A stretch of 64,000 bases of DNA from Methanobacteriota archaeon (GTDB lineage Archaea; Halobacteriota; Bog-38; Methanoflorentales; Methanoflorentaceae), in assembly GCA_963720465.1 (NCBI GenBank), contig OY970393.1, positions 256,001-320,000 of the forward strand, in the 5' to 3' direction. Of this stretch, positions 42,389 through 54,693 are shown in pieces. The position numbers and the translations under genes are program-made. Under the pieces are notes generated by a model. The model was not told the DNA's origin and searched no databases. It saw nothing but the letters and a program-made list of their open reading frames with translations. Each line of letters begins with the position of its first letter. The first letter of the stretch is position 1.

Positions 42389-43963
42389 CTACGGCGGCTT
42401 TTCTTCTGGGATGACCGCGGCCCCCAAACGGCCGAGGTCGAGGCGATCCCACGGAGTCGGCGGAAGTGGTATGTTCATCATTTCATGGCTCAGGTCGTGA
42501 CGTTCCCATTGCAGATACATGTCTTTATAATCATCAGGAAATGAGTCACGACTGCCAGCGATTTTCAAACGCTCCTTGATAAAAGGCTTTAGGTCTCTCT
42601 TTTGCTGGCGGATTGTGCGTAGAATTGTTGTGTCAACCACGTCTCTGCCGTCCCAAAGCCGAAGGATAGGCGTTAGATGAAACATATGCACGAGCCGCGC
42701 GTCTTCCAGCGGCAATTGCTCCGTTGATTCTGCCCATTGCTTGATGAGCGCATGTTCCTTTCTCCAGATCGCCACGCGTCGTGATGTGATCTCTTTTGTT
42801 AGTTGCCGACATCGCGTGCGTCGCGTTATGGGAGCGTCAACTTCGTCGAAAGCCCGCATAAAGCCTTGGTCCATATTGATCTTGATGAGGCCGATATTGA
42901 GCTCTGCAAACCCGTGAACGGGAATCAAGGGATCAATAACGGTAAGGTCTACGCGTCGATCGCTTTGCTGCGCAGCTGCCAGATCGCCGTTGGTGATTTC
43001 GTCAAGAACAATCGCTGCCGCCCGATTTGCTATGTCGAGGAGGTCACGATCGTCGCTGCTGCCCACGGCCCAGTCCATGCAGTTCGTGCTAAAGTCTTCC
43101 GTCCGTATGTCAAACAGACTGCTTGTGGTCCAGTCCTCGGTCGGGTAATCCGCAACCGAGTCTTCGCGGTCTCGACTGAGGCGCGGAAGACAGAGAATAG
43201 CAAAGATCGTGTCGGCGCCGCAGTCTATCGCTCCCCGGATAGGGACAACTTCCCGAACAGAGCCATCGATATACCAGCTGCCGTCCACCTCGACGGGGGG
43301 AAATATCCCCGGAACCGCTGCTGATGCGAGGGCGGCTTTAATGAGCTTCTCTCGTGACTCACACAGTACGTTCACTTTGTCGCCCTTGTTGTCCCTGTCG
43401 CGATCGGTGTCGCACGACCTGTTATAAAAGCAGGTGTGCGCTCCTGTCTTAAGATCTGTCGCGTAAAGACGGAATGCTATTTCTGACGTAAGCGCTTTGT
43501 CGAGATCTTCAACGTCCTCACTCATCTTCTTTTCGAGGCGATCGGCCGGGTAGAGCGAGCGCTTGTCTTTAACGATCTTGATCATGTTTTCGAGATCCTT
43601 GACGGCGCTCGAAACATCCCCGAATAGTTGGAGGCTTGATTCGTGCAAAAGGCCTCCCATCGTGCAAACCCAGGAACCCACTGCACCGTCGACGACGGTT
43701 TTTAGCAAGGGGGCTAATTCTTCTGACCACTCGTGCTGCGGAATCAGATCGACCCGAGTGTTGACGTCCTTAAACCAATACCGTTCCAGCTTGTCAGCGC
43801 AGTCTTCACCCGTAGCAACGATCGCTGCGTTGATCGCACCGATTGAGGTGCCACAAACACACTTAATATCTGGCAAAACGCCCTTTTCATACAGATATTT
43901 GAGCGCTCCGACTTGAAAATCGCCGAGGGTTCCCCCGCCGCCGAGCACAACTCCAGTTGGCAT
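42389..43963 (-). CDS. Patatin-like phospholipase with long C-terminal extension
   Basis: GGGGTLG, GTSIG nucleophile elbow, ASAAVPGIFPP, DGS. Confidence 0.9.
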   Translation of the reverse strand: MPTGVVLGGGGTLGDFQVGALKYLYEKGVLPDIKCVCGTSIGAINAAIVATGEDCADKLERYWFKDVNTRVDLIPQHEWSEELAPLLKTVVDGAVGSWVCTMGGLLHESSLQLFGDVSSAVKDLENMIKIVKDKRSLYPADRLEKKMSEDVEDLDKALTSEIAFRLYATDLKTGAHTCFYNRSCDTDRDRDNKGDKVNVLCESREKLIKAALASAAVPGIFPPVEVDGSWYIDGSVREVVPIRGAIDCGADTIFAILCLPRLSRDREDSVADYPTEDWTTSSLFDIRTEDFSTNCMDWAVGSSDDRDLLDIANRAAAIVLDEITNGDLAAAQQSDRRVDLTVIDPLIPVHGFAELNIGLIKINMDQGFMRAFDEVDAPITRRTRCRQLTKEITSRRVAIWRKEHALIKQWAESTEQLPLEDARLVHMFHLTPILRLWDGRDVVDTTILRTIRQQKRDLKPFIKERLKIAGSRDSFPDDYKDMYLQWERHDLSHEMMNIPLPPTPWDRLDLGRLGAAVIPEEKPP

Positions 43964-44478: not shown

Positions 44479-44721
44479 TCAGCTGCGCTCTTTCGAATAA
44501 CTGATCAACGTGTCGCGCACACATGAAAAATGCTCTGAGACATCATCGTCAAAAGCCGCGCTTCCGCCGTGGTCTGCTTCACCGTCTTTTGCTGCCATCG
44601 AACCCGCGAGCTGGTCAACGGCGCGGGTCAAGCGATCTGCGCACGTTCGGCAATCGGCAAGCGTCGCATTAGGACAGCCGACGCGGAGTCCATAGTAGCA
44701 CACATCGTGTTCTTGGTTCAT
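44479..44721 (-). CDS. Small 4-Cys protein A (80 aa), paralog of 54207-54473
   Basis: MNQEHDVCYYGLRVGCPNATLADCRTCADRLTRAV; 4 nt downstream of the preceding ORF. Confidence 0.65.
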   Translation of the reverse strand: MNQEHDVCYYGLRVGCPNATLADCRTCADRLTRAVDQLAGSMAAKDGEADHGGSAAFDDDVSEHFSCVRDTLISYSKERS

Positions 44722-44725
44722 ACTC

Positions 44726-44860
44726 TTAGGGTGGCGCTCTGTTGCTGGGGCTCTCAACAAGGATCTCCGCCACCGTGGGATCAATCTCAAGTATGGTGCG
44801 AAGCGTCTGTTCAATAATGGCGATGTCGCTTTCCAGTTTCGTTAGTTCCCTGTTTGCCAT
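44726..44860 (-). CDS. Helical microprotein (44 aa)
   Basis: MANRELTKLESDIAIIEQTLRTILEIDP...; strong GGAGGTGA SD upstream. Confidence 0.6.
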   Translation of the reverse strand: MANRELTKLESDIAIIEQTLRTILEIDPTVAEILVESPSNRAPP

Positions 44861-45184
44861 CACGGTCACCTCCAAACCAGACTGCGCAAGAAAGTTTCTT
44901 AAGGCCGCGTGAGACAGGCTTTGTGTGCGAAAGTGTGACAAAGAGCTTGTGCCACACCCTCTCTGAATGTAGAGCGGAACCGGACCGCGGTGCCGCGTGC
45001 CGCATTCAGCTCGAAAAAACGCTGCTAATGCACAATACTAGCGAACTCAAATCTTCTTAAGCGCTCATTTTTCAGCATCGTGCTTAACGGAGGCCCGTGT
45101 GGGCAAACGATAACCAGGGCTAGTGCTAGATAAGAACCTACTTATATGCAATATCTCTAGATGCACTTGAGAACTTTGAGAACT

Positions 45185-46075
45185 ATGCATCTCAGTCAGG
45201 AAGTGCGAGCCTACGGCACCCTCATGCGGCTGCCTTATGTGCTCATGCTCGCCCTTCTATGCATCCTCTTTATCGTCACGTTCCAAAAAGGCTTACCCGA
45301 GCTTGGGCTCGTGGGTTTGGCGGTCATTACCGTAGCGATGGTAACTGCAGGAAGCGCGGCCATAAACGATTACTGCGATCGCGATTCAGACGCGCTCACG
45401 CATCCTGAAAGGCCTATCCCTTCGAACCACATCTCTGCTGCTCACGCCGCGGAGTTTTCTGCTCTGGCGTTCTTTGCTGCAATCGGGGTCTCACTTACGA
45501 TTAACGTCTTTGCTTTTGGCATTGTGCTCGTAAATGTTGGACTCTTCATTCTGTACGCGCGTGCGATAAAGCGAGTCTCTGGGTTTGTGAGCAACTTGGT
45601 TATGGGATATCTGGGAGCAACGATTGCTCTCTTCTCGGGTGCGGTAGTATTTCATACAATCAATGTCACGTCGCTCTCGTTCGTAGGTTTGATTGCCGGA
45701 GCTGCTATCGGTTTAAACGTTCTCAAAGACGTTTTGACCTTAACTGGGGACCGAAAAGTTGGATATCCCACCCTTGCGGCAAAGCGAGGGATACGCGTAG
45801 CAGCGATTGTCGGCGCTCTTTTCCTTCTTCTCTCTGCAATAACGTCGCCATTGCCGTTTTTTGTTGGGGCTGTCAGCGTTGCCTATTTGTTTCCTATTGC
45901 TGTTTGGGGCTGCTTCGTCTTCGTTACGGCCCTTACCCTCCTGAGAGCACCAAACATCGAAAATGTGACAGCGCAACTCAGGATCTTCACGACGTACTTT
46001 CCGTATGTTGCGGGACTCGCCGGCGTTGCGTATATACTTCCCTTCGCCGTCTGGGGGGCGCATTACAGTGTCTGA
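45185..46075 (+). CDS. UbiA-family prenyltransferase (DGGGP synthase-like)
   Basis: INDYCDRDSD...PERPIPS, KD....GD...G.PTL; multi-TM. Confidence 0.9.
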   Translation: MHLSQEVRAYGTLMRLPYVLMLALLCILFIVTFQKGLPELGLVGLAVITVAMVTAGSAAINDYCDRDSDALTHPERPIPSNHISAAHAAEFSALAFFAAIGVSLTINVFAFGIVLVNVGLFILYARAIKRVSGFVSNLVMGYLGATIALFSGAVVFHTINVTSLSFVGLIAGAAIGLNVLKDVLTLTGDRKVGYPTLAAKRGIRVAAIVGALFLLLSAITSPLPFFVGAVSVAYLFPIAVWGCFVFVTALTLLRAPNIENVTAQLRIFTTYFPYVAGLAGVAYILPFAVWGAHYSV

Positions 46076-46105
46076 AGAAAAATCGCACAGTCTAGCTGGT
46101 GCAAA

Positions 46106-46420
46106 ATGGCGTCTCAGGTAGCTGATCACGCCGACAATCTAGAGTCACCTCTTGGTCAGACGAGGAACATATTTGATATATGCAATATCCTCAATGGGTC
46201 AAGAAAAGCTGCAGGTCAGTTACTGCGACTTCATAAAGAGACTTACGCCGCTTCTCTTTACAGCTGGGACGCGTTTTTTGCACGTCGAGTCAATTACGGC
46301 AGGAAATACAAGAAAGACAATCACAAGAAGCTCGCGCGAATAGGTGACGCTTACATCCGAGACATAGATGCCAAAAAAATGGAATGGAACTCGGCCAAGG
46401 GATGCGTTAACTATGGAAGG
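46106..46420 (+). pseudogene. Degenerate duplicate of the methyltransferase N-terminus
   Basis: QTRNIFDI...ARIGDAYIRDIDAKK aligns with QIRDIFDI...ARVVDAYIEDKHAKK of the next gene; no SAM motif. Confidence 0.6.
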
Positions 46421-46588
46421 CGATCGAGGCGAGGGTACCCAACACTCACATTAGAGCGCGGCGCACGCAGCAGCAATTGCTGGGGCGCTTGTCCTTCTAA
46501 TCTCCGCCATAACGTCGCCCTTTCATATCTCGTGAGGGCCGCCAGCGCTGCCTACGCGCTCGCGGTAGCTGCCTGGGGGTCCAGTGAA

Positions 46589-47566
46589 ATGCCTGAAGAA
46601 ACTATTGAATGGAAAACTACTGAATTGACGACCGATTCCACAGCAGACCGCCGCGCTGTAGGACAAGATCCAAATCTCGAGCTATACCTTGCGCAGATTC
46701 GTGACATATTCGACATACCTCGTATTATTGATGCGCCGCGCGATAAGCCGCAGATTATCAACTATTATTTGGCGAATAAACTTTCGTATAGATTGGCATG
46801 GAGTTTGGAGGGATTTATCCACTGCGGCATTAGCTACGACGGAAAACGCAAAAAAGAAGATTTCAGGGAACAAGCTAGAGTAGTTGATGCGTATATCGAA
46901 GACAAACACGCTAAAAAGGTGCTCGAGCTTGGCTATGGATTGGGTTCAAACTCCGCATACCTTGCAAGGCGCAACCCTCACGTGACCTTTGACGCGATTG
47001 ATATATCTAACAAGCCTTTGAGAAGTTTCACAACGATACCAAACTTGAGTTTTTGTTTCGGGGACTATCACAATTTGAGCCAGTTCAAGGATGACTCGTA
47101 CGATATCGTCTTTGTCATTGAGGCTTTGTGTTACTCAACTCAGAAATTAAAAGTATTTCGTGAGGTTAAAACGAAGTTAAAAAATGACGGCTTTTTAATT
47201 GTTTTTGACCCGTACACGAGAAATCGTGTGACTCCTCTGAGTGAGTCGGAAAAAACCATGTGGAAACTCATTTACAGAGGCTCTGTGCTTAAAACGTTCG
47301 AACGCGTGGACGATGTTGAGGATGCGATGCGAAAGGAGTTCTCAATCGTTATCGCTAAGGACCTATCGACGTGTGTTCTTCCGTCCTTGGAGGCACAGGA
47401 ATCCAAGGCGCGCCACTACTTTAATCATCCTGCTATTGCGAGAGTTATCAACAAGGTTCTTCCATTTGACGTCGTAAGACATCTGCCGCAGATATTGCTG
47501 ATGCCCACAAGCGTGCGAAGGCAGGTCGGGTGCTATTACTTACACGTGCTAAAAAACGATCGGTGA
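46589..47566 (+). CDS. Class I SAM-dependent methyltransferase
   Basis: VLELGYGLG, AIDIS, GDY, YDIVFVIEALCY, LKNDGFL. Confidence 0.88.
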   Translation: MPEETIEWKTTELTTDSTADRRAVGQDPNLELYLAQIRDIFDIPRIIDAPRDKPQIINYYLANKLSYRLAWSLEGFIHCGISYDGKRKKEDFREQARVVDAYIEDKHAKKVLELGYGLGSNSAYLARRNPHVTFDAIDISNKPLRSFTTIPNLSFCFGDYHNLSQFKDDSYDIVFVIEALCYSTQKLKVFREVKTKLKNDGFLIVFDPYTRNRVTPLSESEKTMWKLIYRGSVLKTFERVDDVEDAMRKEFSIVIAKDLSTCVLPSLEAQESKARHYFNHPAIARVINKVLPFDVVRHLPQILLMPTSVRRQVGCYYLHVLKNDR

Positions 47567-47597
47567 CATATCTTGCAAGGCGCTTTGCGCCAGCCAG

Positions 47598-48437
47598 TCA
47601 AACCTGCGGTGGGCCTTGTTTTTGTAGTTCTTCAATTCGCCTTGCCGCAGGAACTGACTGTTGCCACAGCATTTCAAAGGTCTCTATCAGGTAATCAGCG
47701 TAGGTGGGGTCATCGGTATAGAGCATTGCAATGGGTTGAGTCAGTGAGAGATGCTTGATATCCAAGTTAATACCATGCAAACAAGTTTTTCTGTCCAGCA
47801 CAGCGAAATATACCCCTCGGTATCCATCTAAATGGCGTACTTCCTCGCCAACGGCCAGTGCTTCTTTAACGAATTCAATTGCGGAGTATGATACATCAGT
47901 CAGCATTCTGAAGCTCGCTCCGCGCTCTATAAGCTTCTTGATTTCGTCTAATATGCCGAATAGCGAAGCGACAGCGATCACCTCTTCAGGACTTACCAGG
48001 ATCACTTCATTCTCGCATGCAGTTGTGAGAGCATTAGCGATGCCGACGAGTTCCTTAATGCTTTTGATAATCTTGAACGTCTTAACTTCGTCCGAGGGCC
48101 GGAACCGCTGTCGCTTTGAGAGCTGCTGCAGCTCCCGCCTTCGCGCCTCCATCTCTCGCAGCTCACTCTCCTGCTTTTTCACTGCGGCTTGGAGAGCGGC
48201 GTCCAGGTCCACTGCGGCGTAAATCGTTGGAGAGTCGAGTGAGGGCCGCACCATGCCTTTTTCAATGAGGCCAGTCAGCGTGCGGTGCACGTCCTCGCGA
48301 TATGTCTTGAGCGACTTTGCGAGAGGCGAGGGGCTCTTGGGGCCGTACTTGAGCAGGTGAAGATAGGTCTGTGCCTCCTTTTCGTTAAGCCCGAAGCCAA
48401 CCAGACGAGCGATAAACTGTGCGTCGTCGTCCATCAT
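47598..48437 (-). CDS. TrmB-like regulator (wHTH + coiled coil + sensor domain), copy T3
   Basis: FGLNEKEAQTYLHLLKYGP...YREDVHRTL..LIEKG; C-terminal EVRH..YRG..F..D, FE.LW. Confidence 0.88.
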   Translation of the reverse strand: MMDDDAQFIARLVGFGLNEKEAQTYLHLLKYGPKSPSPLAKSLKTYREDVHRTLTGLIEKGMVRPSLDSPTIYAAVDLDAALQAAVKKQESELREMEARRRELQQLSKRQRFRPSDEVKTFKIIKSIKELVGIANALTTACENEVILVSPEEVIAVASLFGILDEIKKLIERGASFRMLTDVSYSAIEFVKEALAVGEEVRHLDGYRGVYFAVLDRKTCLHGINLDIKHLSLTQPIAMLYTDDPTYADYLIETFEMLWQQSVPAARRIEELQKQGPPQV

Positions 48438-48814
48438 GACGAGATATCGTAAGCCGTAAATAAACGTTACTGTCCTGATTTTTATATTGCCCTATTTTGT
48501 TAATTAGATGTTTAACGTTCTAGAGCGCCTTACGCTCTGCTTTTATCGTGTGATTATGCTTGGCGGTTATTATCAGTTCAATGCGCTGAGAATAATTGCG
48601 AGATCAACATCTGAGTCGTGCAAACTCATGGGGGATGCTAGAGTAGATCGTTATCAGTCAACTTACCCTTTCGGGGCAACAATAGGAATGCCGAGTGTTT
48701 TTATGAACTATGGTCTAGCACCGGTCGCAATAAGTATTACAGCGGCAATATGGAAGCAGCTCTGGCAGCGTGCAACTGGTCGGTCGAGTGCTCTCAATGT
48801 GCGCAGACCTTCTC

Positions 48815-49273
48815 CTAAAACTCGTGTATCCGCTTCTGCGCATCAGTCGCTTCTGCCCAGGCTATATCGAAGTTTGAAAGGAGGTACTCGGCGTAGTCAG
48901 GATCATCAGTCCAGAATGCCACGATCTTGTCATCAAGCGAGAGATCTTTGACGTTGAAGTTAGTCGAACTAATGCTTTGGCTCTTATCTCCGACGAGCAG
49001 AAACGAGCCGATATCGTTTTCAATATGGCGCAGGTCTACGCCAATGTCGAGGAGTACGCTTACAGTTTCCGCGTATGGTGATGAGATCGTAGTTATTCCG
49101 CGCACTCGTCCACCCTTTTGCATCAGGCCTCTCGATTTCAAGTTGTATTGCGCGGCCATTGCCAACATCGGTGCTGGGAAAAGCCACGCAATGTCAATCT
49201 CTGCAGATTCTATGATGCTTGAACAAACCGTTATGACATCTTTCAGACTTTCAACGATCGTCTCATGAACCAT
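48815..49273 (-). CDS. HTH-less TrmB sensor-domain protein, copy S3
   Basis: ESAE....W..P, GGRVRGIT, LRH, FWTDDPDYAEYL...FD.AW. Confidence 0.8.
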   Translation of the reverse strand: MVHETIVESLKDVITVCSSIIESAEIDIAWLFPAPMLAMAAQYNLKSRGLMQKGGRVRGITTISSPYAETVSVLLDIGVDLRHIENDIGSFLLVGDKSQSISSTNFNVKDLSLDDKIVAFWTDDPDYAEYLLSNFDIAWAEATDAQKRIHEF

Positions 49274-49308
49274 TAACAGAGTGAAATGTCTCGGGGTTTA
49301 TAATGTTG

Positions 49309-49329
49309 CGTGACATCGTTTCCTTCACG
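49309..49329. promoter_or_regulatory. Inverted repeat CGTGA-N11-TCACG next to the TATA of S3
   Basis: Same motif and position at 51361-51381. Confidence 0.55.
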
Positions 49330-49417
49330 TGCTATTATGCCGAGTAGCTGAGTTTCGCTGGGAGGTATGCATTGAGCTTCTCATTGCCGAGCATCCGCGC
49401 TCGCTTTTCACGACTGC

Positions 49418-49545
49418 GCCTCGTTTTAAAAGCTTTTGAATCCGCTCCGCCGCCGGAAATAACGGCTGCGACAATACCTCAAATGTGGCCGTCATGTGTC
49501 GAGCGTAAGCAGCTAATCGGTCCACAGTGCTGCACCTCGTTAATC
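49418..49545 (-). pseudogene. Relic 3' end of a further TrmB-like gene
   Basis: (L)WTD...AAYARHMTATFEVLSQPLFPAAERIQKLLKRG resembles WTDDPAYAQYLTSTFEMLWKQAIPAEQRIEQLLQQG. Confidence 0.6.
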
Positions 49546-49704
49546 AAGCGAAAAACGGGGTATATTTGGGCTAATCTAACTCATAACGCTCGTCAAAAAC
49601 GGAGGTACGTTTCAGTTCAATAGGCTAAGCGTGCGTAGCAAAACGTCACGACACTTCGCAGTCAAGAACAGAGATTATATAGGCGAGTCGGTGATGGGCA
49701 TCCA

Positions 49705-50538
49705 TCAACTTTTCGGAGGGCCTTGCTGTAACAGCTGTTCTATACGCTGCTCTGCAGGGATCGCCTGTTTCCACAACATCTCAAACGTTGACGTGAGGTA
49801 CTGAGCATATGCTGGGTCATCGGTCCAAAGTCCGGAGACAGGCTCGTTGAGGGATATACGCTTGACTTCCGCGTTGATCGCGCTTATAGAGATTTTTCTG
49901 TCAAACACGACGAATGTAACCCCGTGTTCATCAATATGGCGCACTTCTTCACCGATGGCTATCATTTCTCGCACCGGCGCAATAAATGGATACGAAATGT
50001 CGATGATGGCTCGCACCTTTCCTCCGCGCTTGATAAATTCATACGCAGCCTCGTTGACTCCAAAGAGGGAGGCGACAACAGTCAGGTAAGCAGGAGCGGC
50101 TATCAGTCATTCCTCTTGCATCGAGTCAATTAAGGGCATAGAGACAGCGACGAGTTCCTTAATGCTCTTGATGATCTTGAACGTGCTCACTTCATCGGAG
50201 GCCCGGAATCGTTGTTGTTGCGAGAGCTCCTGAAGCTCACGCTTCCTTTCCTCCATCTCCCGGAGTTCGCTCTCCTGCTTCTGCAGAGCGGACCCGAGGG
50301 CGGTGTCGAGGTCGACGGCTGCGTAAACGGTGGGGGAATCAAATGAGGGACGTACCATGCCCTTCTCGATCAACTCAGTGAGGGTGCGGTGCACATCTTC
50401 GCGATACGTCTTCAGCGATTTGGCGATCGGGGACGGAGTCTTGGGGCCGTACTTAAGCAGGTGTAGATACAACAGTGCCTCTTTTTCGGTGAGCCCGAAT
50501 CCAATTAAACGGCGGGTGAACTCGTCGTCAGTGGCCAT
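49705..50538 (-). pseudogene. TrmB-like regulator T2 interrupted by in-frame TGA (50107-50109)
   Basis: Both ORF-track pieces are in the same frame: ...IDSMQEE*LIAAPAYLTVVASLFG..., colinear with paralogs. Confidence 0.8.
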
Positions 50539-50840
50539 TATTGGTCACAACGCATGTGAGCTAAATAATAGATATAGGTTAGCTTCGAAAAAGAAAGGCG
50601 AGGTCAAATACGCTATTTCGAGCGTTACAGCGTCACAGTTCAGTGCTTCAGTAGCATTGAGCCTACATCATTACGCACGGCGTGAGCGGCGGTCGATTGA
50701 AAGCACTATAAGCATCTGCTGTCGGAAAATATTTACGATGTCTACGCAATATGAGAAGAATACGCATGAAAGAATTTTAGTGAACAATCTTGGATATCTT
50801 TACTGATACTATTTGAGCATGCGCTCTTTAACTCGGCGCA

Positions 50841-51326
50841 TTAGAGATGCGAGGGGCTGTCACTAAGCTCTTGTATCCGCTTTTGTGCATCAGTAGCTTC
50901 TACCCAAGTTCTATCAAAGCTTGACAGGAGGTATTCGGCATAATCTGGGTTCTCAGTCCAGAGCGCTACAATCTTATCGTCAAGTGAGAGATCCTTGACA
51001 TTAACGTCAATCGCACTGACGCTTTGCCTGCAGTCTCCTACTACCATAAACGCCCCACTGTACTGTTCCACGTGGCGGACGCCTATCCCAATGTCGATGA
51101 GTTTGCTTACCACTTCGATATACGGCGGTGACACTTGGGTGATCCCTCGCACGTGTCCTCCTTTTTGTATCAGCACTCTGGATTTGTCATTCAGACAGAA
51201 GTGAGCGGCCAAGACCAATAGAGGGGCAGGGACGAGCCAGGAAACTTCCTTCTCTGCAGATTCTAGGATAGTTGAAGCCACAGCTATAGCGTCTTTAACG
51301 CTTTCAATAATGGTCCCATCTATCAT
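50841..51326 (-). CDS. HTH-less TrmB sensor-domain protein, copy S2
   Basis: TIIESVKDA...ESAEKEVSW..P, GGHVRGIT, LWTENPDYAEYL. Confidence 0.8.
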   Translation of the reverse strand: MIDGTIIESVKDAIAVASTILESAEKEVSWLVPAPLLVLAAHFCLNDKSRVLIQKGGHVRGITQVSPPYIEVVSKLIDIGIGVRHVEQYSGAFMVVGDCRQSVSAIDVNVKDLSLDDKIVALWTENPDYAEYLLSSFDRTWVEATDAQKRIQELSDSPSHL

Positions 51327-51360
51327 CAAGCAAAACAGGAGGCCTCGGTTTATAAAGCTG

Positions 51361-51381
51361 CGTGACAAAGTTTACTTCACG
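51361..51381. promoter_or_regulatory. Inverted repeat CGTGA-N11-TCACG next to the TATA of S2
   Basis: CGTGA caaagtttact TCACG beside TTTATAAA (51349-51356). Confidence 0.55.
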
Positions 51382-51451
51382 TTCTAGGTCAGCGACTAAA
51401 AAAGTACTAAAAAGTAAGCAAGGTCAAGCATTTTCCCAAGCGTAGCCCGGC

Positions 51452-52288
51452 TTATGTCTGCGGAGGTCCGTGTTCTAAAAGCTCTTGTATTCGCTGTTCC
51501 GCTGGAACAGCTTGCTTCCAAAACATTTCGAAAGTTGAGACGAGATAGTCAGCATACACGGGATCGTCGGTGTACAGCATGCTGAGCGGCTCATCGAGTC
51601 TAAGATGTTGAATATCAACGTTGATCGCACTGATGCAGTGCTTTTTGTCAAAGACTCCGAAGAACGCCCCGCGGTAATCGGCAAAGTGGCGCACATCGGC
51701 ACCGATATCCAAAAGAGAGCGAATTATGTCGATGAGCCGATACGAGATATCGGCAATGCCGCGGATTTGCGCTCCGCGCTCCTTGAGTTCTTTTTTTGCC
51801 TCAATAATGCCAAACACTTCGCTAAATTCTACTCCTTCCCGATTTGACAGCCATAAGAACTCTTCTTTGGCTGAAAGGATGACAGGTATGGCTGTGCCGA
51901 TAACTTCCTTGATACTTTTGAGGATCTTAAACGTTGCGACGTCTTCGGAGGGTCGAAATCGTTGCTGCTTTGCTAGTTCCTGCAACTCCCGCGTTCGCGC
52001 CTGCATTTCGCGGAGCTCGCTTTCATGTTTCTTGAGCGCGGCCTGGAGCGCGGTGTCGAGGTCCACCGCGGCGTACATTGTAGGTGAATCGAGGGAGGGG
52101 CGCACCATGCCTTTTTCAATCAAGCTTGTAAGCGTACGGTGCACGTCTTCTCGGTAGGTCTTCAGGGATTTCGCGAGAGGCGACGGGGTTTTTGGTCCGT
52201 ACTTGAGCAAGTGAAGGTAGAGCTGTGCCTCCTTTTCGCTGAGCCCGAAGTCTATAAGACGAGTAATGAAGTCGTCGTCGTCACCCAT
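51452..52288 (-). CDS. TrmB-like regulator, copy T1
   Basis: FGLSEKEAQLYLHLLKYGP...YREDVHRTL; full sensor domain. Confidence 0.88.
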   Translation of the reverse strand: MGDDDDFITRLIDFGLSEKEAQLYLHLLKYGPKTPSPLAKSLKTYREDVHRTLTSLIEKGMVRPSLDSPTMYAAVDLDTALQAALKKHESELREMQARTRELQELAKQQRFRPSEDVATFKILKSIKEVIGTAIPVILSAKEEFLWLSNREGVEFSEVFGIIEAKKELKERGAQIRGIADISYRLIDIIRSLLDIGADVRHFADYRGAFFGVFDKKHCISAINVDIQHLRLDEPLSMLYTDDPVYADYLVSTFEMFWKQAVPAEQRIQELLEHGPPQT

Positions 52289-52394
52289 AATCACAGTAAT
52301 TGGACGGCAGCCAGTAGAAAGCGTTACTATCTATAGCTCAGATCAAGAAGCGCCCTAGCGGCAACTGCCGGTTAAACAAACGAAAGAGTGCGTT

Positions 52395-52859
52395 CTACAG
52401 TTCTCGGATCCGCTTTTCTGCATCGACTCCTTCGCTCCATGCGGTCTCAAACGTGGCGATGAGGAATTCAGTGTAGGATTGGTCATTGGTCCAGAATGCA
52501 ACTAGCGGATCGTCAAGCGAGACATCCACGCTATTCACGTTGATCGAACTGATGCTCTCTTTCTTGTCTACGACAAGCATGAACGCTCCCTGGTACTGAT
52601 CGATGTGGCGTAATTCTTCGCCGTTGTCCACGAGTTTGCGCGCCACATCAAGGGAGCTTCCTGAAATCTTGGTGATCCCCCGTACGCGTCCGCCGTTTTC
52701 TATCAGCATTTTGGTCTTGTTTGGTATGCCGAATTGAAAGGATAAGGCCAGTATGGCAGGTTCGAGAAGCCACATGACTTCCTTTTCCGCGGATTCTACG
52801 ATATTTGATCCTGCGGCTAAGGCGTCCTTGACACTTTCAATAATGATCCCTTTGGCCAT
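52395..52859 (-). CDS. HTH-less TrmB sensor-domain protein, copy S1
   Basis: MAKGIIIESVKDA...ESAEKEVMW..P, GGRVRGIT, FWTND..Y. Confidence 0.8.
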   Translation of the reverse strand: MAKGIIIESVKDALAAGSNIVESAEKEVMWLLEPAILALSFQFGIPNKTKMLIENGGRVRGITKISGSSLDVARKLVDNGEELRHIDQYQGAFMLVVDKKESISSINVNSVDVSLDDPLVAFWTNDQSYTEFLIATFETAWSEGVDAEKRIREL

Positions 52860-52996
52860 TATTATCAGATAACGTCCTCGAGCTGATAAAGCTGTGCCTC
52901 CTAGCACGTCGTGAGGGTTCTCGTCGCTTGGATGCGCCTGTGCTGTTTGTACCAAACTGAAACGTCTCAATTCGAGGTTGGAACGGACTCTAATGA

Positions 52997-54241
52997 CTAG
53001 TGCTCTTCCCGCAGCAGCTCGTTTATGCGCTGTTCTGCGCCAGACGCCTGCTCCCAAGCCATCTCGAACGCGCTCATAAGGAATTCCGCTTGCGCAACGC
53101 CATCGCTCCATAGCGCCTCAACATTTTCGTCGAGCGAAAGGGTGGCCTTAAGAGCGGCGTGAATGAGGCTTATGCTTCGCTTGCCATCGGCCACGGCCAA
53201 CGTCATCCCGCGGTATTGGTTTGTATGCCGCAGTTCAATGCCACCATCCAGGTACGCGCGTCCAGCAGAAAGGTTCTGAAGCGAGATATCGAGCACGCTG
53301 CGGACACGCACGTCGCGGCCCACCGCACATTTAAGATGATCGAGGAACCCCCCCATCGTGATGAGGTTGAATCGGGGATGGGCGACGAATACAAGAGACG
53401 TCTCTGCCGAGTTGATGAGCTGTGAGATGGCAGCAACAAGTTCGCCGACGGTTTTCAGCATCTTGAACGCGTGGGCGTCGTCTGCTCCGCGGCTCAGCGC
53501 GCCTTTTGCGTCCCCCGCAAGCTCGTTCTTGACCCTCTGCAACCGATGCAGCTCGCACAGCCGGGACGTGAGCGCGCCGTCGAGTGCGTCTACAAGGTCT
53601 ATAGGCGCGTAGCACGATGAATCCTCCTTGCTTTTCACGATTACACCTGCGTCAATCAATCTCGCGCAACGGCGATAAGCGTCCTCGCGGTACGTCTCGA
53701 GGGATCGCGCGAGGTCTCCAGCACGCTTCGGTCCGTACTTGAGTAAATGCACGTAGAGCTGTGCCTCCTTCTCACCAAGCCCGAGCTCAGTCAGTAGTTC
53801 CGTGAGCCCTTGCTCATTATCGAGAGCGAGAGCTTTAGATGGGGGGGTTTCATCTGCGGTACGTAATTGCGTGCTATTCGCGAGTACGATGAGCTCCCGC
53901 TTTATCGCCTCCATCCGACGAAGTTCGCGTTGGCGCGGAAGCAGCACGGCGTCGAGAGCATCTTCTAAATCGATCGCTGTATAGACAGCCGGGCTCTCTT
54001 TCTTTGCGGTCACAATGGTCTTATCGGCGAGGCTTGCAAGTATTCGATAAACCTGAAGGCGATACGTCTTGAGGGATCGCGCGAGGTCTCCAGCACGCTT
54101 CGGTCCGTACTTGAGTAAATGCACGTAGAGCTGTGCCTCCTTCTCACCAAGCCCGAGCTCACTCAGTAGTTTTGCGCACGGTTCTGCATCGATGCCACAT
54201 GCCCCGTTACTCGTGCGGTAACTCGCTATCTCGCCATACAT
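52997..54241 (-). CDS. TrmB-like regulator with tandem duplicated wHTH domains (T0)
   Basis: Two copies of ELGLGEKEAQLYVHLLKYGPKRAGDLARSL followed by one sensor domain; GGAGG SD before ATG 54241. Confidence 0.85.
   Translation of the reverse strand: MYGEIASYRTSNGACGIDAEPCAKLLSELGLGEKEAQLYVHLLKYGPKRAGDLARSLKTYRLQVYRILASLADKTIVTAKKESPAVYTAIDLEDALDAVLLPRQRELRRMEAIKRELIVLANSTQLRTADETPPSKALALDNEQGLTELLTELGLGEKEAQLYVHLLKYGPKRAGDLARSLETYREDAYRRCARLIDAGVIVKSKEDSSCYAPIDLVDALDGALTSRLCELHRLQRVKNELAGDAKGALSRGADDAHAFKMLKTVGELVAAISQLINSAETSLVFVAHPRFNLITMGGFLDHLKCAVGRDVRVRSVLDISLQNLSAGRAYLDGGIELRHTNQYRGMTLAVADGKRSISLIHAALKATLSLDENVEALWSDGVAQAEFLMSAFEMAWEQASGAEQRINELLREEH
53691..54171. repeat. Near-perfect direct repeat: 53691-53799 vs 54063-54171 (91-nt exact core)
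   Basis: Identical gagggatcgc...ccgagctca at 53699-53789 and 54071-54161. Confidence 0.9.
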
Positions 54242-54473
54242 TGTGCTCCTCCCGCAAAATGTTCGCCACTTTTTTTTCACGCGCCTCTGCAGCGACGCCA
54301 GTGCCGGGCCATGTACATATGCGCGGCGCGTCGGTGCTGCTAACACCCTGATGCAGCACGTAATTTACTGCGTTTGTTAGGCGTTCTGCGCACGTGTCGC
54401 AGTTGGGGTCGCACGCGGCGTTGAGGCAGCCAAAGTGGACGCCGTAATAGCACCCCAACTTCTTCGTGACCAT
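54207..54473 (-). CDS. Small 4-Cys protein B (88 aa), paralog of 44479-44721
   Basis: MVTKKLGCYYGVHFGCLNAACDPNCDTCAERLTNAV; AGGAGG SD; overlaps the T0 start. Confidence 0.68.
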   Translation of the reverse strand: MVTKKLGCYYGVHFGCLNAACDPNCDTCAERLTNAVNYVLHQGVSSTDAPRICTWPGTGVAAEAREKKVANILREEHNVWRDSELPHE

Positions 54474-54693
54474 GCGTGTTGCCTCCTACTCGATCCTACG
54501 CGAAAAAGCGGTATAAGGCCGCGTGAACACATTTGTGTGTCACACGTAGGTGGAGGCGGCAAAAGCGCGAGCACATTGCCGGCGCTTCTGTCACACGCGC
54601 AAAAAAAAAAATAATGTTCGATTACCGATGCGTGAGCCTGTAACGTTCGTGCACGCCTTTCCTCGTCGCGCGTGTTTAGAGGCGACGCGTCGA

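Follow-up and report, generated by a model that had tools for sequence, protein, structure and literature searches.

Small proteins rich in cysteine are poorly annotated in archaea, and two described systems come closest to the locus treated here. According to excerpts of the published reports (PMC10716476, PMC11241148, PMC6562870), the C(P)XCG micro-proteins of Haloferax volcanii, for example HVO_0758, are proteins of less than about 70 residues in which two C(P)XCG knuckles supply four cysteines presumed to bind one zinc ion; many paralogous genes, mostly of unknown function, are present per genome. The second system is Brz/Brb of Halobacterium salinarum, in which, as described in excerpts of PMC2253796 and PMC3184054, a small regulator with a zinc-finger motif is co-transcribed with a second small protein and acts alongside a larger transcription factor. 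We analyzed a stretch of 64,000 nucleotides (the window; G000:C1:256001-320000) from an archaeal genome of 2.31 Mb assembled as a single contig, in which two open reading frames (ORFs), ORF A and ORF B, encode four-cysteine microproteins on either side of an array of TrmB-type regulator genes. ORF A and ORF B are members of a multicopy family of proteins of 45-90 residues that is found only in one uncultured lineage of peat archaea and whose intact copies share a conserved promoter. As far as sequence comparison and the excerpts cited allow a judgement, archaeal zinc-finger micro-proteins (C(P)XCG proteins, Brz/Brb) are the closest known kind, and the family is not a member of it.

The likeness to the C(P)XCG proteins lies in the archaeal host, the small size, the four cysteines and the many paralogs per genome. 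Unlike them, the family has a C-x7-C pair and one CxxC-Ala at the start of a helix in place of two knuckles, and its members are all homologous and share a promoter, in contrast to an assortment of unrelated small proteins. No CPXCG motif is present in ORF A, ORF B or the family consensus, and Pfam, PDB profile and exhaustive cluster searches found no sequence relationship to C(P)XCG proteins. Brz/Brb would be a precedent both for the adaptor or regulator role proposed below and for an operon of two small ORFs; it differs in being single-copy and in belonging to another lineage, no sequence similarity to it was detected, and the excerpts of its reports mention no link to TrmB.

Two other protein groups are similar in part. 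In the HMA/Atx1 metallochaperones, too, an amphipathic helix carries a CxxC at its N-terminal end, within the pattern C-T-x-C-A-E-x-[LV]-T-x-A-V (MxCxxC loop plus helix 1). The best PDB profile match placed PnCtkCAeRLtnAV on the metal-site loop and helix MDCTSCAEAVTKAV of ScAtx1 (4a47_A), at a non-significant E=0.055; only about 15 residues are convincingly aligned, and the family has two extra cysteines upstream. The HMA domain folds as beta-alpha-beta-beta-alpha-beta, for which the family core is too short, and no Pfam match was obtained at E<=1, including to HMA (PF00403) over its fold of about 65 residues. The WhiB-like (Wbl) proteins of Actinobacteria are small four-cysteine proteins with several paralogs per genome, are confined to one lineage and act through transcription proteins; their cysteines are spaced C-x(n)-C-x2-C-x5-C. 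The likeness to them is an analogy of working only: there is no homology, the Pfam search gave no match to PF02467, the spacing observed here is C-x7-C-x8/9-C-x2-C, and the hosts belong to another domain of life.

The family was delimited with a profile made from four copies, searched against all stop-to-stop ORFs of at least 25 residues in the genome (56,448 ORFs), and with tblastn. Because nine ORFs match at E<=1.3e-4 and the next match follows only at E=0.06, the likeness of ORF A and ORF B is, on this sequence comparison, far beyond chance; compared directly in a single BLASTP run they share 17/32 identities (E=2e-9), which marks them as paralogs. Seven of the nine copies look intact, at genome positions 4923, 300479 (ORF A), 310207 (ORF B), 369526, 1009912, 1848228 and 1878882. 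The copy at 1734991 has lost its promoter and N-terminus, that at 1836948 is a fragment, and further truncated or degenerate members are P0157, P0162 and P0164. The otherwise intact copy G000:C1:1878882-1879046 (+) has a full promoter and a serine for the second cysteine (GS, not GC), which its close relative L043 retains. Two inverted, near-identical segments with PadR-like and ABC-2 permease genes whose products share their N-terminal sequences (G000:C1:1735713-1737165 and 1838139-1839594) lie about 100 kb apart, each at about 1-2 kb or less from one of the two degenerate copies, and may be a segmental duplication.

Outside this genome, 181 proteins at E<=0.01 were found among 893 candidates from a collection of 5.8 billion proteins (alignment A2), and an exhaustive profile search of 1.84 billion cluster representatives gave 54 clusters at E<=0.001, of 31-172 residues, none of them with a fusion to a known domain. 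Profile searches of Pfam, NCBIfam and the PDB gave no significant match to the microprotein, and among the 120 matches listed of the 181 there is no Pfam domain and the names are absent or "hypothetical protein". By these comparisons the family is previously undescribed; no absence from the literature is claimed, the literature search not having been aimed at the family by motif or name. A protein atlas search with P0003 returned a sole match of 0.75, below the level for a usable lead. A match on a viral contig (L114) was rejected as spurious, because it is antisense to a long ORF for a structural protein and only "CAERLDHA" is aligned.

The distribution is narrow. The family is present, with 2-11 matches each, in 21/23 genomes of the same taxonomic family (f1, two genera), the two without a match being 61% and 86% complete, and it is absent from 17/17 genomes of 12 other families of the phylum (84-100% complete). 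Named records with relatives are metagenome-assembled genomes from peat, labelled Methanomicrobia, Euryarchaeota, Methanobacteriota or Halobacteriota archaeon, one of them "isolate bog_38". Bog-38 is equated with Rice Cluster II / Ca. Methanoflorens in an excerpt of 10.64898/2026.05.27.727921.

Codon statistics were obtained from 71 members in 24 genomes over 41 well-filled codon columns. Pairwise differences at codon positions 1, 2 and 3 are 0.27, 0.23 and 0.46, and the median ratio of nonsynonymous to synonymous substitution rates (dN/dS) is 0.28, with dS usable in 251 of 400 sampled pairs. The family is under purifying selection, and we consider it very probable that its members are real proteins; moreover, Shine-Dalgarno motifs are correctly spaced from the starts across members.

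Conservation of cysteines and other residues was read from an alignment of 116 sequences (A3), in which 109 have all four cysteines (CCCC). Single losses occur in four (CCCY in 2, YCCC in 1, GCCC in 1), and the remaining three (LRCC) form the subfamily TLYYGR..., which has lost Cys1 and Cys2 jointly and has a new cysteine later in the helix. Cys3 and Ala35 are invariant, and Y10, G11, G15, R31, L32 and V36 are present in >=95% of the sequences, at an overall identity of about 25%. The conserved part, taken here as the functional unit, is a core of about 40 residues, C-[YWL]-Y-G-x3-G-C-x8/9-C-x2-C-A-E-R-L-x2-A-V-N. Since the shortest intact members (P0027, P0022, P0043), of 46-55 residues, consist of the core alone and end 5-10 residues past the conserved helix, the longer tails are optional extensions, kept only among orthologs within one subfamily: a ...SYSKERS tail is conserved in the ORF A orthologs P0069, P0080 and P0087, and another tail in P0017, P0018, P0030 and other orthologs of ORF B. 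The tails of ORF A and ORF B are unrelated to each other.

A sequence-only reading of this DNA had reported most of the local anatomy, and it was borne out: the two ORFs and their common core are placed exactly as it described in the ORF list and translations, they are paralogs by BLASTP and are both recovered by the four-copy profile, their tails differ, the Shine-Dalgarno motif of ORF B and the overlap of this ORF with the start of the adjacent TrmB gene T0 (35 nt) are present, and ORF A is accompanied by a 44-residue ORF, after a gap of 4 nt, and by a patatin gene downstream (PF01734, 515 nt away). Its claim that the four cysteines and certain core residues are conserved holds for the wider family as well (109/116 and >=95%). 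It had also claimed a new family, to be checked by a search for homologs; this search recovered relatives with the same cysteine pattern and matched no characterised family, and neither Pfam, NCBIfam or PDB matches nor functional names among the listed relatives speak against the claim. The nine loci of the genome, the conservation of the small ORF beside ORF A, its fusions and the shared promoter described below go beyond what that reading had noticed.

The shared promoter became visible when the 170 nt upstream of the first start codon were aligned for 50 cassettes, from this genome and its relatives and from all subfamilies that could be anchored. Every intact copy examined has a sharply bounded conserved block of about 70-110 nt with the consensus GGTGTGACACAAAC-N4-5-CTGTCACGCTTTCC, once or twice in tandem, then CACACAATCnCTGCCTCACGCGGCCTTA[T/A]GAAAC; after about 25 nt follow GGAG[A/G]T, 6-7 nt and ATGGCA. 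Mean pairwise identity is 0.79 in the block (difference 0.21) versus 0.35 further upstream, and the third codon positions of the ORFs, with an identity of 0.54 (1 - 0.46), are also below the block. We interpret TTA[T/A]GAAA as a TATA box and the repeats ACACAA...CTGTCACGC as putative regulator sites. Intact copies keep one to three units of these operator-like direct repeats (ACACAA-N4-5-CTGTCACGC) together with the TATA-like element. As the same repeats are found in all intact copies, the copies are expected from their upstream sequences to switch on together, co-expressed as a regulon. The family has spread as a unit of about 300 bp composed of promoter and ORF.

The element is specific to the family within the genome. 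The TATA-proximal 20-mer CTCACGCGGCCTTAWGAAAC has five exact occurrences, all at family copies, and a strict pattern of two operator half-sites is found genome-wide in four places, again all family copies. ORF B and copy 1009912 have a shortened block, and another copy of GTGTGACA lies at 54584-54598, near the ORF B promoter. At G000:C1:2032578-2032597 (+), directly 3' of a tRNA-like sequence, the 20-mer occurs with 2 mismatches and with no family ORF behind it, perhaps as a remnant or by chance. The features of the window are collected in Table 1.

Table 1. Features of the two microprotein loci and their surroundings (window positions)
Feature	Position	Strand	Basis and remarks
ORF A, 80-residue four-cysteine microprotein (A-type subfamily)	44479..44721	-	ORF list, translation from ATG; ...VCYYGLRVGCPNATLADCRTCADRLTRAV...
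ORF B, 88-residue four-cysteine microprotein (B-type subfamily)	54207..54473	-	ORF list, translation; ...GCYYGVHFGCLNAACDPNCDTCAERLTNAV...
Shine-Dalgarno motif of ORF B, AGGAGG	54482..54487	-	Sequence read; 8 nt before ORF B ATG
Putative promoter/operator of ORF B, GTGTGACAC...GTTCACGCGGCCTTATACC, shortened block with TATA-like element	54510..54545	-	Comparison with family consensus
Partner ORF, 44 residues, predicted amphipathic helix	44726..44860	-	4 nt upstream of ORF A
Shine-Dalgarno motif of partner ORF, GGAGGTGA	44866..44873	-	Sequence read
Putative promoter/operator of cassette A, GTGTGgCACAAg...TGTCACAC...CTGTCTCACGCGGCCTTAAGAAAC	44894..44959	-	Comparison of 50 aligned upstream regions
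T0, TrmB-family regulator with two winged helix-turn-helix (wHTH) domains	52997..54241	-	PF01978, E=5.6e-28, 97 bits, 2 stretches
TrmB array downstream of T0	47598..53111	-	PF01978, E=1.6e-13 and 6.6e-15; PF11495 weak, below cut-off
Patatin-like phospholipase gene	42389..43963	-	Pfam PF01734, E=2.3e-30; context only

Gene order was compared for 75 members at 69 loci, composed of 60 loci of +/-4 kb from the genomes of 23 relatives and the nine loci of this genome. Three arrangements are distinguished: (i) promoter, partner ORF and cysteine ORF, the two ORFs being apparently coupled in translation and occasionally fused; (ii) promoter, cysteine ORF and one or more TrmB genes, overlapping or abutting; (iii) promoter and cysteine ORF alone. 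In a tree of 71 core sequences (46 columns), which is weakly resolved as a whole, the well-supported branches require that the TrmB association and the partner association each arose at least twice.

The partner ORF, of 45-53 residues, lies between promoter and cysteine ORF in 14/75 members, as found by a jackhmmer search of the 69 loci. It is present in 7/7 A-type and 7/7 GRHVGC-type members, always upstream of these types, and follows the pattern MA..E.T..ER.IA.IE.TL....D.TVAEI... In six partner cassettes (L036, L060, L064, L066, L068, L076) the stop of the first ORF overlaps the start of the second by 1-4 nt, and two different in-frame fusions of partner and cysteine protein exist, P0092/L081 (126 residues) and P0141 (91 residues). 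We regard it as an even chance, or slightly better, that the partner product binds the cysteine protein. The start context ATGGCAAC of MATN-type copies is colinear with ATGGCAAAC of the partner ORF, which suggests an origin of these copies through loss of the partner body. Downstream of the A-type cassettes the patatin gene is a syntenic neighbour, likewise in L060, L066 and L081.

Downstream of the GRHVGC-type cassette of this genome, at G000:C1:3922-4475 (-) (L002:518-1071), are an ORF of 89 residues rich in Met, His and Lys and an ORF of 74 residues with a match to the MazE/AbrB-type domain PF04014 that, at 24.1 bits (E=3.4e-5), stays below the cut-off of 24.7; past them follow two ORFs judged by eye, one ABC ATPase-like, the other a hydrophobic membrane ORF. 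Synteny of the 89-residue ORF extends to L044 and probably to L035 and L052.

The second arrangement, in which a TrmB wHTH gene on the same strand starts -100 to +400 nt downstream, was found in 13/75 members: 4/5 of the B-type, the fifth being at a contig end, 8/21 of the CWYG-type, and one fragment. In the four B-type members the next gene downstream is a TrmB gene with two wHTH domains; in the window this gene is T0, whose ATG (54241) is overlapped by the 3' end of ORF B and whose MYGE... start is kept in L069 and L084, and copy 369526 abuts a downstream TrmB gene of its own. That the genes after ORF B and copy 369526 belong to the TrmB family is read from their wHTH matches to PF01978, which are above the gathering cut-off of 25.6 bits (97 bits for T0, 50.7, 55.2 and 52.9 bits for array genes and 49.2 bits for the gene after copy 369526).

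The array behind T0 alternates full-length TrmB genes (279-280 residues) with ORFs of about 146-175 residues that match only the TrmB C-terminal domain, an unusual tandem expansion of regulator halves. One of its TrmB genes, 49705-50538 (-), is split by an in-frame TGA (50107-50109) into a wHTH part of 143 residues and a C-terminal part of 103 residues; in the genome search both parts come out as a single match of 65% identity with "1 TGA" inside, and the gene may be a nonsense pseudogene or a case of read-through. Upstream of 48815-49273 there is a GTCACGC...TTATAAAC-like string, too short to judge. In the metagenomic protein P0160 (172 residues) a degenerate B-type microprotein is joined in frame to a T0-like TrmB start; it looks like a frameshifted or low-quality read-through, not a true fusion, and shows adjacency only.

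For the TrmB subfamily of copy 369526 (P0166), a database search gave 947 relatives at E<=1e-20. At E<=1e-30 this subfamily gives 2-21 matches in 22/23 f1 genomes and none in the 17 other genomes, so the microprotein family and the TrmB expansion share the same narrow range. A complex prediction combining this TrmB (A5, 51 rows) with P0003 (A6, 79 rows) reached a score of 0.00 (mark 0.32), which speaks neither for nor against binding. We put the chance of a direct functional link between the microprotein and TrmB proteins well below even. The sequence-only reading had placed the microproteins in the TrmB system; adjacency in 13/75 members and at least two clades agrees with this, but the association is not general and ORF A is merely near the array. 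Overall, this is a genuine microprotein family with regulatory anatomy, for which the biochemical and TrmB interpretation of that reading is plausible but only partly supported.

Structure prediction gives some indication of a fold. AlphaFold2 (AF2) modelled ORF B, from 116 sequences, with a mean predicted local distance difference test score (pLDDT) of 49, only helix 23-42 reaching block means of about 60-69. The natural fusion P0092 (alignment A7) gave a mean pLDDT of 60 and a predicted template-modelling score (pTM) of 0.28, the range over both models being 0.23-0.28. In the P0092 model the partner forms a confident helix (residues 2-26, block means 79-92), a beta-bridge joins Y55 and G61, the residues adjoining Cys54 and Cys62, and a second helix (68-91, block means 74-77) starts just ahead of C70-x2-C73; the cysteine domain has block means of 56-77 overall. 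With low-to-moderate confidence, the models fit a mini-domain of hairpin plus helix whose four thiolates lie close to each other; how the parts are positioned towards each other is unreliable in them. The metal or Fe-S binding and the redox or metal sensing that the sequence-only reading had proposed would have their whole basis in this cysteine pattern and these models. Sequence pattern and models together put the chance that the cysteines bind metal somewhat above even; the protein would then be a small metal-binding protein of hairpin and helix, probably with zinc.

The reading that we favour, with a probability of roughly 0.45, is that of a metal-binding helix adaptor expressed as a regulon and linked to TrmB. 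A beta-hairpin would bring Cys1 and Cys2 together and pack on an amphipathic helix with the CxxC in its first turn, so that four thiolates could hold one metal ion, most likely structural zinc. The microprotein would thus be a small, metal-stabilised, protein-binding adaptor, whose helix may pair with the partner helix or with a TrmB factor of the co-expanded subfamily. All copies would be driven from the common operator as a regulon; one of the expanded TrmB paralogs of the lineage would probably recognise this operator, which would make the TrmB-linked cassettes autoregulatory.

Several observations weigh against this reading. The AF2 models are of low confidence, with mean pLDDT values of only 49 (ORF B) and 60 (fusion) and a pTM of 0.23-0.28. 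The four-cysteine site is not indispensable, because the TLYYGR... subfamily (3/116) looks intact without Cys1 and Cys2 and copy 1878882 has a serine at Cys2. In Haloferax, several micro-proteins predicted to be zinc fingers are reported to bind no zinc (excerpt of PMC11241148). As to TrmB, 62/75 members have no adjacent TrmB gene and 48/75 stand alone, with neither TrmB nor partner adjacent; no operator copy was found ahead of the remaining TrmB genes in the array; and because both families are confined to a single lineage, their co-distribution counts as one phylogenetic observation.

The nearest competing explanation concerns the metal and its use: an Fe-S or Fe(Cys)4 centre acting as a redox or oxygen sensor in the manner of WhiB, in which oxidation of the iron would alter binding to TrmB and the paralogs would give graded or condition-specific responses. 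Four conserved cysteines including a CxxC, the small size, the many paralogs per genome and the link to transcription-factor genes in 13/75 members would all suit it, and the hosts seem to be anaerobic methanogens of peat, to judge from an excerpt of 10.64898/2026.05.27.727921. No Pfam match to WhiB or to any Fe-S family was obtained, however, the spacing C-x7-C-x8/9-C-x2-C is unlike that of WhiB and unlike ferredoxin, rubredoxin and radical-SAM motifs, Cys1 and Cys2 are both missing from one subfamily, and sequence alone does not distinguish iron from zinc; we consider an iron sensor unlikely. The numerous copies at unrelated loci, with two tiny coupled genes behind a repeat-bearing promoter, frequent truncated or degenerate copies (1734991, 1836948, P0157, P0162, P0164) and restriction to one lineage, could also be those of a selfish addiction cassette similar to toxin-antitoxin systems, from which the stand-alone and TrmB-linked copies would be decayed or domesticated derivatives. 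But 61/75 members have no partner and still have intact ORFs under purifying selection, most subfamilies are syntenic orthologs across genomes and not mobile, tblastn found no family relative on plasmids, and the sole viral-contig match is an antisense artefact. Type II toxin-antitoxin systems are defined by obligate pairing, and a partner in only 14/75 members makes this origin distinctly improbable.

Variable tails on a conserved N-terminal part bring to mind precursors of modified or secreted cysteine peptides, that is ribosomally synthesised and post-translationally modified peptides (RiPPs) or bacteriocin-like products, with the N-terminal part as leader and the tail as core. The many paralogs, the Thr, Asn and Cys frequent in the conserved part, the ABC-2 transporter genes within 3 kb of several copies in this genome and an NCBIfam match of the partner ORF to a family of RiPP peptides, which at 14.6 bits (E=0.026) stays below the cut-off of 50, fit this picture, whereas the cysteine-rich part is the most conserved one and not the variable one, and intact members of 46-55 residues end 5-10 residues past the helix, which leaves no core to modify. 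The sequences show neither a signal peptide nor a leader cleavage motif, and no immediate downstream neighbour resembles a modifying enzyme by its N-terminal sequence (a comparison of the downstream side only, made without a family search). Leader, core in all members and adjacent enzyme were thus not found together, and RiPP precursors are very improbable. The ORFs might finally be fortuitous, within a repeated non-coding DNA or RNA element, for which the short duplicated unit and the conservation of about 100 nt upstream as DNA could be cited; this is hardly tenable, given third codon positions that vary about twice as much as the first and second, the dN/dS of 0.28, a frame open in 71 members and 24 genomes, Shine-Dalgarno motifs at the right distance and specific residues kept at about 25% overall identity.

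The family is set apart from other small cysteine-rich proteins of archaea by three features: it is a single homologous multicopy family of one uncultured lineage; its promoter/operator has diverged less than the synonymous sites of the ORF behind it; and it is modular, combining with a helical mini-partner or with TrmB regulators. By analogy with WhiB-type regulators, a bolder and improbable proposal is that the family is their archaeal functional counterpart, in which the metal centre would sense redox, oxygen or metal, the helix would dock on TrmB or on the partner protein, and one shared operator would drive all copies; if this were true, it would give a dominant lineage of peat methanogens a dedicated, stress-responsive regulatory layer. 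If the lineage is indeed Bog-38/Rice Cluster II, the family would be a testable entry into the regulation of an organism not yet grown, through its operator, its candidate regulators and its peptides of 46 residues, which are readily synthesised.

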